A stretch of 64,000 nt of DNA from Escherichia coli (GTDB lineage Bacteria; Pseudomonadota; Gammaproteobacteria; Enterobacterales; Enterobacteriaceae): assembly GCF_003790525.1 (NCBI RefSeq), contig NZ_CP033635.1, one strand, 5' to 3'. Both the position numbers and the translations under genes were made by a program. Below, in pieces: positions 3,630-26,450 of the stretch. Below the pieces are notes generated by a model. The model was given only the letters and a program-made list of their open reading frames with translations, did no database searches and was not told the DNA's origin. Position 1 is the first letter of the stretch; every line of letters starts with the position of its first letter.

Positions 3630-4994
3630 TTACTGCGCAGCGGCAGGTTTACGCGGACGGCGACGGCGTTGTTGTTCGCCTGCCGGTTTGGCATCACCAA
3701 GACGACGAGATGTTTTTTCTGCGGGCTTCGCGCTAGCTGATTTCGCACCACCTTCTCCACGGCGTGGTTGCTGTTGACCGCGACCACCACCTTGCCCACG
3801 ACCGCCGCCGCCACGTTGCTGGCGACCGTTCTGGATCGGTTCGGCTTTGATTGACGGGTCCGGCTCATAACCCGGAATCGCAATGCGCGGGATCTCTTTT
3901 TTCAGCAGTTTTTCGATATCACGCAGCAGTTTGTGTTCATCAACACACACCAGCGACAACGCTTCACCGGTAGCAGCCGCACGACCGGTACGCCCGATAC
4001 GGTGGACATAATCTTCCGGTACGTTTGGCAGTTCATAGTTGACCACGTGCGGCAGCTCTTCAATATCCAGGCCGCGCGCAGCGATGTCAGTTGCCACCAG
4101 TACACGAATATCGCCCGATTTAAAATCAGCCAGCGCACGGGTACGCGCACCTTGCGATTTATTGCCGTGGATCGCCGCACTGCGGATGCCATCTTTATTA
4201 AGCTGTTCAGCCAGATGGTTAGCGCCATGTTTGGTACGGGTAAACACCAGCACCTGCTGCCAGTTCCCTTTCCCAATCATATGCGACAGCAATTCGCGTT
4301 TGCGTTTCTTATCGACAAAGTGAACGTGCTGGGTCACCTGATCAGACGCAGTATTGCGGCGTGCCACTTCGATTTCCAGCGGGTTGTGCAACAGTTTTTC
4401 CGCCAGGGCTTTAATATCGTCAGAGAAGGTCGCGGAGAACAACAGGTTCTGGCGCTTCGCTGGCAGTTTTGTTAACACGCGACGGATATCGTGGATAAAG
4501 CCCATGTCGAGCATGCGGTCAGCTTCATCAAGGACGAGGATTTCAACCTGATCCAGCTTCACTGCATTTTGATGTTCCAGGTCCAGCAGACGTCCCGGCG
4601 TTGCCACCAGCACATCAACGCCGCCGCGCAACTTCATCATTTGTGGGTTAATGCTGACACCGCCAAACACCACCAGCGAACGAATGTTCAGGTATTTGCT
4701 GTAATCACGGACGTTTTCGCCAATCTGCGCCGCCAGTTCACGGGTCGGGGTAAGAATGAGCGCACGTACCGGACGACGCCCTTTGGCGTGCGGCTGGCGA
4801 GTGATCAGGTGTTGCAACAGCGGCAGCGTAAAGCCCGCTGTTTTGCCGGTGCCGGTCTGGGCGCTGGCCATCAGGTCGCGGCCTTCCAACACCGCAGGGA
4901 TCGCCTGCTGCTGAATAGGGGTGGGTTCACGGTAACCCTGCTCGGCAACGGCGCGCAGGATATCAGGGCTTAAACCCAAAGAATCGAAAGACAT
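3630..4994 (-). CDS. rhlE: ATP-dependent RNA helicase RhlE (DEAD-box, 454 aa)
   Basis: ORF track 454 aa, [33 protein letters not shown]..., Gly/Arg-rich C-terminus. Confidence 0.96.
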
Positions 4995-20130: not shown

Positions 20131-20159
20131 ACGAAGCCGGAAGAATATTCCGGCTTCGT
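20131..20159. terminator. Perfect 11-bp-stem hairpin between convergent ybhK and uvrB (candidate bidirectional terminator)
   Basis: acgaagccgga-agaatat-tccggcttcgt. Confidence 0.4.
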
Positions 20160-20166
20160 CATCTTG

Positions 20167-22188
20167 TCACGACGCGGCAATAAACAGCTCACGCAGCTGA
20201 TGCAACTGGTCACGAATTTGCGCCGCTTCTTCGAACTCCAGATTCTGCGCGTGTTGCATCATCAACCCTTCCAGTTCATGGATCTTCTGCTGCAACGCTT
20301 TAGGCGACATATCCATCGGCACATTATCTGGCTCAACAATCGGGCGCGATTTTCCTCTGCCCTTCGCTTTGGTTTTGGCAATGTTCTGCCCCAGCGCCAG
20401 GATATCGACCACTTTCTTGTTCAAGCCTTGCGGCGTAATGCCGTGTTCCTCGTTGTACTTCTGCTGTTTCTCGCGGCGACGTTCGGTTTCGCCAATCGCT
20501 TTCGCCATTGATGGGGTGATCTTATCGCCGTAGAGAATCGCTTTACCGTTAACGTTACGTGCCGCACGACCAATGGTCTGGATCAACGAACGTTCGGAAC
20601 GCAGGAAGCCTTCTTTGTCAGCGTCGAGGATCGCCACCAGCGACACTTCCGGCATATCCAGACCTTCGCGCAGTAAGTTGATCCCTACCAATACGTCGAA
20701 CTCACCCAGACGCAAGTCGCGGATAATCTCCATACGTTCGACGGTGTCGATATCTGAGTGAAGATAACGCACGCGCTCACCGTGTTCTTCGAGATATTCA
20801 GTGAGATCTTCCGCCATCCGCTTGGTCAGAGTTGTAACCAGTACGCGTTCGTTAATTGCCGCTCGCTGACGAATCTCCGATAGAAGATCATCGACCTGTG
20901 TCGCTACCGGACGCACTTCAATAATCGGGTCAAGTAAGCCTGTTGGACGCACCACCTGATCCACCACATCGCCGCCGGATTTTTCCAGCTCGTAATTACC
21001 CGGCGTCGCCGAAACATAGATGGTTTGCGGCGCTAATGCTTCGAACTCTTCAAATTTCAGCGGACGGTTATCCAGCGCTGATGGCAGGCGGAAGCCGTAC
21101 TCCACCAGCGTCTCTTTACGCGCCCGGTCACCGCGATACATGCCGCCAATTTGCGGAATGGTAACGTGAGATTCATCGACGACCAGCAGCCCATCGGCAG
21201 GCAGGTAATCAAACAGCGTCGGCGGTGGCTCACCCGGTCCACGACCGGAGAGGAAGCGCGAGTAGTTTTCAATCCCCGAACAGTAGCCCAGCTCGTTCAT
21301 CATCTCCAGATCAAACTGGGTACGCTGGGTCAGCCGCTGCTCTTCCAGCAGTTTGTTGTTTTCCAACAGCACCTTGCGTCTGGCAGCCAGTTCTTCTTTA
21401 ATTTCTTCCATCGCCTGCACAATGCGCTCGCGCGGTGTGACGTAGTGCGTTTTCGGGTAGATGGTAAAACGTGGAATAGTGGAAACAATCTGCCCGGTGA
21501 GCGGATCAAATAACGACAATCGTTCCACTTCCTCGTCAAACAGTTCCACGCGAAGTGCAATGTCATCCGATTCTGCCGGGAAGATGTCAATCACCTCCCC
21601 ACGAACGCGGAAAGTACCGCGCTGGAAGGCTTGATCATTACGAGCGTATTGCAGCTCCGCCAGTCGACGCAGGATCGCGCGCTGATCGATAATCATACCG
21701 ACCGTAAGATGGAGCATCATCTTGAGATATAAATCAGGATCGCCCAGACCATAAATCGCGGAAACCGATGCCACCACAACCACATCACGCCGCTCCAGCA
21801 TCGCTTTGGTGGCGGACAAACGCATCTGCTCGATATGTTCGTTTACCGAGGCATCTTTCTCAATGAAGGTGTCGGAACTCGGTACATAGGCTTCCGGCTG
21901 ATAATAGTCGTAGTAGGAGACGAAATACTCCACCGCGTTTTCCGGGAAGAATTCTTTCATTTCGCCATACAACTGGGCCGCCAGCGTTTTGTTGGGCGCA
22001 AGTACCATGGTAGGGCGCTGAAGGTCAGCAATGACATTGGCAATGGTGAAGGTTTTCCCGGAGCCAGTCACGCCAAGTAACGTCTGGTGCGCCAGGCCAT
22101 CTTCCAGCCCCTCTTCGAGACGTCGAATCGCCTCTGGCTGATCGCCAGAAGGTTTAAAAGCGGAATTCAGTTTGAACGGTTTACTCAT
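20167..22188 (-). CDS. uvrB: Excinuclease ABC subunit B UvrB (673 aa)
   Basis: ORF track 673 aa, [28 protein letters not shown]..., Walker A GVTGSGKT. Confidence 0.97.
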
Positions 22189-22264
22189 GAGTCGCTACCT
22201 GAAGGAGTTGGGCGGGCAGGTATGTAATTTTACTCGTCGTACTTAATTATGCCAACAAATTATA

Positions 22265-22280
22265 CTGGATAAAAAAACAG
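22265..22280 (-). promoter_or_regulatory. LexA box of the uvrB promoter (CTGTTTTTTTATCCAG)
   Basis: ctggataaaaaaacag on the top strand, about 80 nt upstream of uvrB ATG, next to TATAAT-like sequence. Confidence 0.65.
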
Positions 22281-22584
22281 TTTCTCACCATAATATTTCT
22301 GTTACAGCGTAAACTCCGCTGTCAATCATGAGCAAAATTTACTCTGTGGCGAGATAAAACTCCGGCCTTACCGGGTTATCCCCAAAGCAACGGCTTTTTT
22401 AACATTTGTCAAGATGATTGATGACAGTTTTATGGCAAGAGATGCCTGTTCAGTGACTGCCATTGCAATTATCTAACCTGTTAAAAAATAAAAAATATTT
22501 CTTTGAGCCGTCTTTAACGCCAATTCGCGTGCAAGCCGCGTATTCTCTCGCTTGCCTCGTGTTTTCTAACTCTAATACACATGG

Positions 22585-22608
22585 TTATCCACAGGAATAG
22601 TGGATAAC
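22585..22608. promoter_or_regulatory. Pair of inverted DnaA-box-like 9-mers (TTATCCACA / GTGGATAAC) in the distal uvrB promoter region
   Basis: ttatccaca ggaata gtggataac. Confidence 0.45.
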
Positions 22609-22766
22609 TGTCTGCAGCCCCTATCCCCCGCCGCCTGGGCAATTCCCACATTCACCGCATGATGCGGAGGTAAAATTTTTTTCGTGATTTTTTTAGAATT
22701 TAATTGGTTAAATTGCAGTCAATCGAAGACGCGATCTCGCTCGCAATTTAACCAAGTACAGGATGA

Positions 22767-23444
22767 CTACATTAAGGCAAGATTGATGTACTTTCCGGTT
22801 GCCGCATTTTCTGGATTTTCTGCAAGCCAGGGAATTTCGCCCAGCAGCGGAGCGGGAATCATGCGGGTGAGCGTGGTCATATATTCAGCGTGACGTTTTC
22901 CCGGAGGCGTGACATCATTCGCCACCCAACCCGCCAGAGTCAGTCCGGCGTGTTGTATTGCCTGTGCCGTCAACATCGCGTGATTAATACAGCCGAGTTT
23001 CACACCAACTACCAGTATCACCGGCAGTTGTTCCTGTGTTACCCAATCCGCAAAAGTGAAAGTGTCAGAAAGCGGCGTAAACCAGCCGCCAGCACCTTCC
23101 ACTAACACCCAGTCAGCCTGTTGTTCAAGCGCGCGTAATCCGGCGCTCATTACCAATGATTCTATCGGCCTGCCCTCTTGTGCGCTGATGATGTGCGGCG
23201 AAGTGGGTTCTGCGAAGGTGTAAGGATTTACCGTTGCGTAATCCAGCTGCAGGCTGCTGTTGCGCTGTAACGCCAGCGCGTCGCTATTACGTAAGCCTTC
23301 CGGGATCTTTTCGCTGCCAGAGGCGACCGGTTTATAACCTGCCGTCCGGTAGCCTACTGCCTTTGCGGCTTGTAAAAGTGCACAACTGGCGACGGTTTTC
23401 CCCACTTCGGTATCCGTTCCGGTGACAAAATAACGTTTACTCAC
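22767..23444 (-). CDS. bioD: Dethiobiotin synthetase BioD (225 aa, GTG start)
   Basis: (M)[27 protein letters not shown]...; GTG start overlapping bioC end. Confidence 0.94.
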
Positions 23445-26410: not shown

Positions 26411-26450
26411 TAGACTCGTAAACCTAAATCTTTTCAATTTGGTTTACAAG
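26411..26450. promoter_or_regulatory. bio operator (BirA binding site), imperfect palindrome in the divergent bioA/bioBFCD promoter region
   Basis: tagactcgtaaacctaaatcttttcaatttggtttacaag with GTAAACC / GGTTTAC half-sites. Confidence 0.7.

Follow-up and report, generated by a model that had tools for sequence, protein, structure and literature searches.

In leaky intrinsic terminators with an imperfect U-tract, a stable hairpin of the sense strand stands within a few nucleotides of the operon's last stop codon and is followed by an A/U stretch, which forms a weak RNA:DNA hybrid 3΄ of the stem. Strong stem-loops past the coding region are also known as 3΄-UTR stabilisers, for instance the REP stem-loops, which block 3΄-to-5΄ exonucleases and could set a stable 3΄ end without being a site of termination; stem-loops have likewise been described where Rho-dependent transcripts end after trimming (Dar and Sorek 2018, PMC6061677). 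At the DNA level, IHF- and Fis-binding regions lie by the DnaA-box core of DARS2. The DARS1 core is a 70-bp fragment with DnaA boxes I–III that is active alone in ADP-dissociation assays (PMC6868365), and its DnaA boxes overlap the uvrB promoter P3 (PMC6015884, PMC6868365, PMC5835720).

In this work, we have used computational approaches to analyse a perfect inverted repeat that lies between bioD and uvrB in a 64-kb stretch of Escherichia coli DNA, hereafter the window (Table 1). The hairpin exists and folds strongly, and within Escherichia its arms are conserved while its loop drifts. We tentatively propose that the repeat is the 3΄-end hairpin of the bio mRNA, which may act as a leaky terminator, as an exonuclease barrier or as both, partly insulating DARS1 and uvrB, and which would have originated in the ancestor of Escherichia. 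As in the leaky terminators, a stable sense-strand hairpin stands here shortly after the last stop codon of the operon with an A/U stretch behind it; the differences are the A/U-rich stem, the loop of 26 nt instead of 3–8, the two leading U of the tail, the lack of a mapped 3΄ end in the one usable dataset and the signs of read-through into uvrB. With the 3΄-UTR stabilisers the element shares a strong stem-loop past the coding region, and it could equally set a stable 3΄ end without being a termination site, but it is single-copy, lineage-specific and outside the REP/BIME family, and no processed 3΄ end has been observed. The flank of DARS1 resembles that of DARS2 in being a conserved non-coding segment beside a DARS core, and in many genera it holds a CRP-like motif at fixed spacing. 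The differences are that ADP dissociation in vitro needs no more than the DARS1 core (PMC6868365), that the motif has degenerated in Escherichia, that DARS2 has nothing corresponding to the inverted repeat and that no factor is known to bind the DARS1 flank.

Table 1. Coordinates of the features discussed (window positions, unless a locus handle precedes them)
Feature	Position	Strand	Sequence and remarks
uvrB	20167–22188	minus	same strand as bioD; ATG at 22188
Head-to-head DnaA boxes	22584–22608	.	GTTATCCAC...GTGGATAAC; DARS1 / uvrB promoter P3
Tail directly 3΄ of the stem	22695–22703	minus	UUAAAUUCU; 5 U in 9
3΄ arm	22704–22716	minus	GCAAUUUAACCAA; sequence read and repeat finder
Spacer/loop	22717–22742	minus	GAGCGAGAUCGCGUCUUCGAUUGACU; 26 nt; 5΄ half conserved, 3΄ half variable
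Degenerate CRP-like 16-mer	22730–22745	minus	TGCGAGCGAGATCGCG; last 3 nt of the 5΄ arm and first 13 nt of the loop
5΄ arm	22743–22755	minus	UUGGUUAAAUUGC; begins 12 nt after the bioD stop codon
bioD	22767–23444	minus	stop codon TAG at 22767–22769, 11 nt upstream of the hairpin
bioO	~26416–26450		half-site TTGTAAACC / GGTTTACAA; read in the window
ABC-ATPase gene	L069 3665–4387	minus	likewise L019 3665–4528; equivalent places in most of L012–L083
GCACTTT(T/C)CCGGTGCC motif	L069 4500–4540	that of the ABC gene	equivalent positions in L045, L020 and L012
CRP-like site	L019 4582–4597		example of the site 138 ± 1 bp before DnaA box I

The inverted repeat and its distribution

Read along the window, the arms are TTGGTTAAATTGC (22704–22716) and GCAATTTAACCAA (22743–22755), and a repeat finder returned them as 13/13 complementary around a 26-nt spacer, which confirms both the position and the perfect pairing claimed in an earlier, sequence-only reading of this DNA. 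When one mismatch is allowed, the arms lengthen to 16 nt at 94% (22701–22716 / 22743–22758). They occupy nucleotides 12–24 and 51–63 past the bioD stop codon, with a gap of 11 nt between stop and stem, and both are contained in the A+T-rich bioD–uvrB intergenic spacer of 578 bp; the stem is itself A/U-rich, four of its 13 bp being G·C pairs (31% G+C). In the whole window, perfect inverted repeats of at least 13 bp with a loop of 3–40 nt occur at two loci. Any such repeat was found in 5.5% of 200 dinucleotide-shuffled windows and in 3 of 5000 shuffles of the bioD–uvrB intergenic region, and the repeat downstream of bioD exceeds chance expectation. The other locus (60215–60252) lies between ORFs and has a 16-bp stem, TAAAAATTTATGGGCC / GGCCCATAAATTTTTA, with a 6-nt loop; the outer ends of the stem are A/T runs (TAAAAA... 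on the left, ...TTTTTA on the right), and it looks like a classical bidirectional terminator. A shorter perfect repeat of 12 bp with a 5-nt loop (ACGAAGCCGGAA, 20131–20159) comes directly after the stop codon of uvrB (20167) and probably serves as the terminator of this gene.

The 13-mer has no second copy in the 64-kb window, and with up to two mismatches none was found beyond chance. The resemblance of its core GCAATT to a hexamer in a toxin-antitoxin promoter, which had been noticed before and suspected to be fortuitous, is a coincidence, since GCAATT/AATTGC occurs 55 times in the window, and a link to that promoter was rejected on this count. A copy of the BirA operator was rejected as well: compared by eye, the arm GGTTAAATT agrees with the bioO half-site GGTTTACAA at 5 of 9 positions.

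From 22150 to 22800 the window is 100% identical to E. coli SMS-3-5, and K-12 MG1655 carries an identical element, with arms at 812,959–812,971 and 812,998–813,010. The RefSeq annotation of SMS-3-5 and K-12 MG1655 holds nothing at this place, Rfam gave no match, and the literature search found no published description of the element, which is unmarked in public annotation. An 81-nt query matched 5419 of 5426 complete E. coli genomes, and at BLAST sensitivity the median number of places in a genome was one. Among the matches to the bioD–uvrB spacer in this collection, two are on plasmids and a few genomes have two copies. A dispersed repeat (REP/BIME, ERIC, MITEs) or a mobile element was discarded, the element being single-copy, without a second copy in the window and without a match in Rfam.

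The exact 52-nt allele with perfect arms is present in 4239 complete E. coli genomes, while a second allele (Nissle 1917 type), exact in 376 genomes, has the last base of the 5΄ arm changed from C to U; this C13→U substitution turns the pair into a U·G wobble when read in the bio-sense RNA. In about 600 further genomes the allele present was matched by neither of the 52-nt queries, and six of these were sampled. Most differences in the remaining sampled alleles concern the loop and the 11 nt that separate stop codon and stem. In one allele (L086, L088) an A before the arm produces a perfect stem of 16 bp, and a rare one (L085) contains one A·C mismatch. No cryptic-clade alleles were present in the E. 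coli genome collection.

For the comparison across species, 80 orthologous loci were fetched by the BioD protein, one per species, E. fergusonii not being among them. The sequence-only reading had taken conservation in related genomes as one touchstone of the repeat, and the answer was divided: the hairpin is conserved genus-wide in Escherichia, in all six other species or lineages of the set (L004–L009), and it is absent from every other genus sampled. Three of the substitutions in these sequences disrupt the arms, in L004, L006 and L008.

Gene loss and the origin of the arms

Most Enterobacteriaceae have an orphan ABC-ATPase gene of 240 aa between bioD and DARS1/uvrB. This gene is convergent with bioD and overlaps its 3΄ end; its best match is UrtE/LivF, with scores under the curated family cut-offs. 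It is kept in Enterobacter, Klebsiella, Kosakonia, Lelliottia, Leclercia, Siccibacter and the Citrobacter freundii group, is partially deleted in Citrobacter L017, and is absent from Escherichia, Salmonella, Intestinirhabdus and the C. amalonaticus/koseri/sedlakii group. In local alignments, the 5΄ arm of E. coli and the first half of the loop correspond to the far side of the ABC-ATPase gene, about 200 bp upstream of its ATG, and this homology puts the repeat on the scar of the deletion, with the 5΄ arm adjoining the junction. The ancestry of both arms could be followed: a few substitutions that created complementarity converted GGCGAAATTGC into GGTTAAATTGC, and the same holds for the passage from TTAGCCAAT / TTAGCTGAT to TTAACCAAT.

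Every other lineage without the ABC-ATPase gene has its own, different hairpin soon after bioD. That of Salmonella, GCAGGAUC-AGAC-GAUCCUGC, is G/C-rich and is followed by UGUUCUCUC. In C. amalonaticus (L010, 3700–3785) we observed a different, long-range inverted repeat after bioD, GTCTGCCAGAcGCGC ... GCGCTCTGGCAGgC, whose arms are about 50 nt apart and surround a T9 element, not the CRP-like site. A separate observation concerns the region of ~150–200 nt upstream of the ABC-ATPase gene in L069, L045, L020 and L012, which contains a conserved motif, GCACTTT(T/C)CCGGTGCC / GGTGCA; it resembles a sigma-54 promoter, but its GG–GC spacing is 14 nt, not 12. Outside Escherichia, the leader region of this gene matched no known RNA family in Rfam.

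Folding, pairing and transcript ends

RNA folding, which the sequence-only reading had proposed as a check, gave a clear result: the sense RNA of 64 nt has a folding energy of −20.8 kcal/mol, compared with −9.9 ± 2.4 in shuffled sequences (z = −4.5), and none of 200 shuffles was as good. The RNA of the plus strand also folds well (−21 kcal/mol, z = −4.95). In the other Escherichia, the sense folds of five of the six sequences (L005–L009) reach z values from −2.8 to −5.3, while that of L004 is weak (z = −1.65). In L005–L009 an inner 4-bp helix (GCGA/UCGC, GCAA/UUGC or GCGA/UUGC) prolongs the stem after a 1-nt bulge and shortens the effective loop; this inner helix is weakened in E. coli proper.

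The mean pairwise diversity of eight Escherichia sequences is 0.099 in the 5΄ arm and 0.052 in the 3΄ arm, and rises to 0.188 in the loop, 0.174 in the next 93 nt and 0.425 in the 11-nt spacer; the values for the whole intergenic region and for the DARS1 core are 0.132 and 0.043, respectively. Three recurrent changes in the arms (A7→G, C2΄→U and C13→U) form G·U pairs in the bio-sense RNA only, whereas in the antisense RNA they are A·C mismatches, and they break the DNA palindrome. Paired cells amount to 93.1% in the sense and 83.8% in the antisense RNA, and 14 of 14 distinct Escherichia sequences pair better in the sense orientation (18–19 of 20 pairs, versus 15–18 in the antisense and 14–17 by strict Watson-Crick rules), a comparison that is biased toward the sense strand because the structure scored was taken from the sense fold and contains two ancestral G·U pairs. 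Roughly four of the substitution events in the arms are sense-compatible, two are antisense-compatible and two are disruptive. Covariation was not significant: the arms contain zero double compensatory changes, and column shuffles score equally. Arm conservation, the sense-only G·U variants and the strong fold are the three results that favour an RNA hairpin on the bio transcript.

Does this hairpin terminate transcription? A canonical intrinsic terminator has a G+C-rich stem of ~5–14 bp with a loop of 3–8 nt and a run of at least 5 U in 8 that starts 0–2 nt after the stem, and it sits on the transcribed strand shortly after a stop codon. The bioD hairpin agrees with this description in position and departs from it in stem, loop and U-run. 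Its tail is A/U throughout bar one C, opens with two U and continues into A-runs; by its composition it appears to be a weak, non-canonical U-tract, its d'Aubenton-Carafa-type score is low (~2.1, hand calculation), and among Escherichia it varies (UUAAAUUUU, UUAAAUUCC, CCAAAUGCU). A terminator scan of the window that required a loop of 3–8 nt did not flag the hairpin. Taken together, the A/U-rich stem, the 26-nt loop, the tail and the lack of a scan match show that it is not a canonical intrinsic terminator. The earlier suggestion of an unusual long-loop terminator, as opposed to a classic one, is thus upheld as regards a non-classic RNA hairpin on the bio-sense transcript, while termination itself is what we infer.

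In the Term-seq 3΄-end files of Adams et al. 2021, which cover three conditions, bioD and the coordinate prefixes 8129 and 8130 gave nothing; bioA, bioB, bioC and bioD are all absent from these tables, so bio expression may simply be too low there. The supplements of TERMITe, SMRT-Cappable-seq, TRS and the RNase targetome contain no bioD entry. A published transcription-unit analysis puts bioBFCD and uvrB in one group, which implies that at least some transcripts read through the hairpin.

The DARS1 neighbourhood and the competing explanations

A CRP-like sequence, TGTGA-N6-TCACA with at most two mismatches, is found 138 ± 1 bp from DnaA box I of DARS1 in at least 34 of 77 loci; 20 loci have it with one mismatch, compared with ~0.5% of shuffled controls. 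Enterobacter, Kosakonia and others carry the orthologous site with one mismatch and keep the form TGTGA-N6-TCNCA. The site of these other genera may serve the ABC-ATPase promoter or DARS1/uvrB P3. The E. coli ortholog at the same position, TGCGAGCGAGATCGCG (TGCGA-N6-TCGCG), has three mismatches, a level common in shuffled sequence, and in Escherichia it is a decayed relic. The CRP SELEX paper on E. coli (PMC3105977) names neither uvrB nor bioD in its text; this absence and the three mismatches make a working CRP site in E. coli unlikely. Nor is the repeat simply an extended CRP palindrome, because its axis is 8 bp off that of the CRP-like sequence.

The hairpin is separated from the DnaA boxes by 95 bp in the direction of bio transcription, the nearest arm ending at 22704, and at this distance it was rejected as a part of the 70-bp DARS1 core. 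The ΄uvrBp3΄ fragment (−567 to −280) of an earlier study includes the repeat (PMC6015884). The sequence of the DARS1 core/uvrB P3 itself (GTTATCCACTATTCCTGTGGATAAC plus ATTAGAGTTAGAAAAC...AAGCGAGAGAATACGCGGC, window 22540–22610), already known as DARS1, hardly changes across the genera sampled, out to Pantoea and Pectobacterium, and always lies ~420 bp upstream of the uvrB start codon. In all genera we also observed a conserved A/T-rich element ~75 bp before DnaA box I (window 22672–22695; L010 ~3730–3765); Citrobacter and Salmonella have GCGATAA and then T9 at this place, and E. coli has TCACGAAAAAAATTTT. The Citrobacter sequence AATCAAAATTTAG, which precedes this element, is one mismatch away from the IHF consensus.

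What else could the repeat be? The main rival to an mRNA 3΄-end hairpin is a functionless by-product, a quasi-palindrome made at the scar of the deletion, perhaps in a single step, as when template switching within one strand writes the complement of one arm into its partner; it would have persisted only owing to the youth of the genus and to its linkage with the constrained DARS1/uvrB control region. We consider this rival serious, if on balance rather unlikely. The repeat is placed exactly where the ABC-ATPase gene was lost, with its 5΄ arm at the junction, and both arms derive from older sequence in which several clustered changes made the complementarity; clustered changes of this kind are the signature of templated mutation. 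The covariation result, the lack of a mapped 3΄ end, the evidence of read-through and the tolerance of three arm-disrupting substitutions point the same way. Against this rival stand the diversity of the arms, which is two to three times lower than that of the loop and flanks beside them, the fixation of the perfect allele in most E. coli, with a wobble-compatible change as its commonest variant, and the hairpins that the other lineages without the ABC-ATPase gene also have after bioD. The argument from conservation is not decisive, because it concerns few sites (26 columns).

A cis element acting at the DNA level, whether a dimeric or looping protein site, a residual CRP site or an accessory region of DARS1/uvrB P3 modelled on the IHF and Fis sites that modulate DARS2, seems improbable to us. 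The perfection of the repeat as DNA, the well conserved 5΄ half of the spacer, the ortholog of the widespread CRP-like site that this spacer carries and the closeness of the element to the DARS1 boxes, within the ΄uvrBp3΄ fragment, would all suit such a role. The half-sites of dimeric operators, however, are separated by a short and constant distance on one helix face, while the arm centres of this repeat are 39 bp (~3.7 helical turns) apart and so do not share a face, unlike those of known dimer operators. The window contains the motif once, and in other lineages strict Watson-Crick symmetry falls to 14–17 of 20 while RNA pairing stays at 18–19 of 20, the palindrome being broken where G·U pairs stay. 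The dimeric protein-binding site that the sequence-only reading had put forward is, on these grounds, not supported. The mismatches of the E. coli CRP-like sequence, which fall in both key halves, the silence of the CRP SELEX text on uvrB and bioD, the offset between the two axes and the activity of the 70-bp DARS1 core on its own also argue against a DNA-level element. More ambitiously, the hairpin and the CRP-like site enclosed in it may form part of an unrecognised control layer of DARS1, in which the new hairpin of Escherichia, where the CRP-type site decayed following the loss of a gene, would insulate the DnaA-reactivating complex from biotin-regulated transcription. If true, this would link replication-initiation control to carbon or biotin status, but we hold it to be quite improbable. 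Very improbable indeed is a role of the plus strand, as the leftover leader or promoter of the lost ABC-ATPase gene, which would fold in, or stop, an antisense transcript entering bioD from the DARS1 side. The segment does lie on the strand of that gene, ~200 bp upstream of its ATG, in the genera that keep it, its plus-strand RNA folds well, and U-rich sequence follows the stem in some Escherichia (U7 in L005, AUAUAUUG in L006–L008). In E. coli, by contrast, the tail on that side is GUACAGGAUG, without a U-tract; no promoter-like site was found nearby on the plus strand, the variants favour pairing in the sense strand, and the gene to be served is gone.

We return, therefore, to the 3΄-end hairpin of the bio mRNA as the reading that we tentatively prefer. 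The inverted repeat would be the DNA image of a long RNA hairpin ending the bioBFCD mRNA, with an A/U-rich stem of 13–16 bp around a small G/C-rich sub-helix, followed by UUAAAUUCU. The ancestor of Escherichia would have lost the orphan ABC-ATPase gene convergent to bioD, a loss that put bioD directly beside DARS1 and the uvrB promoters, and the hairpin would have arisen afterwards. As RNA polymerase leaves bioD, the hairpin may form beside the weak A/U RNA:DNA hybrid. A fraction of the transcripts could then be released, as at a leaky intrinsic terminator, or transcripts that read through or are terminated by Rho could gain a barrier against 3΄-to-5΄ exonucleases. Under either option the 3΄ end of the bio mRNA would be set, and less transcription would enter DARS1 and uvrB.

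In kind, the feature is an ordinary operon-end hairpin, and whichever explanation holds, the understanding of bio, uvrB and DARS1 is unchanged. Were the repeat only a scar palindrome, it would illustrate templated mutation neatly, and no more than that. Should the hairpin work in the proposed way, it would mark a previously unannotated 3΄ boundary of the classic bio operon of E. coli, bio read-through could confound work on DARS1 and uvrB P3 in low-biotin media, and the locus would offer a dated case of an operon-end hairpin evolving within one genus after the loss of a gene.
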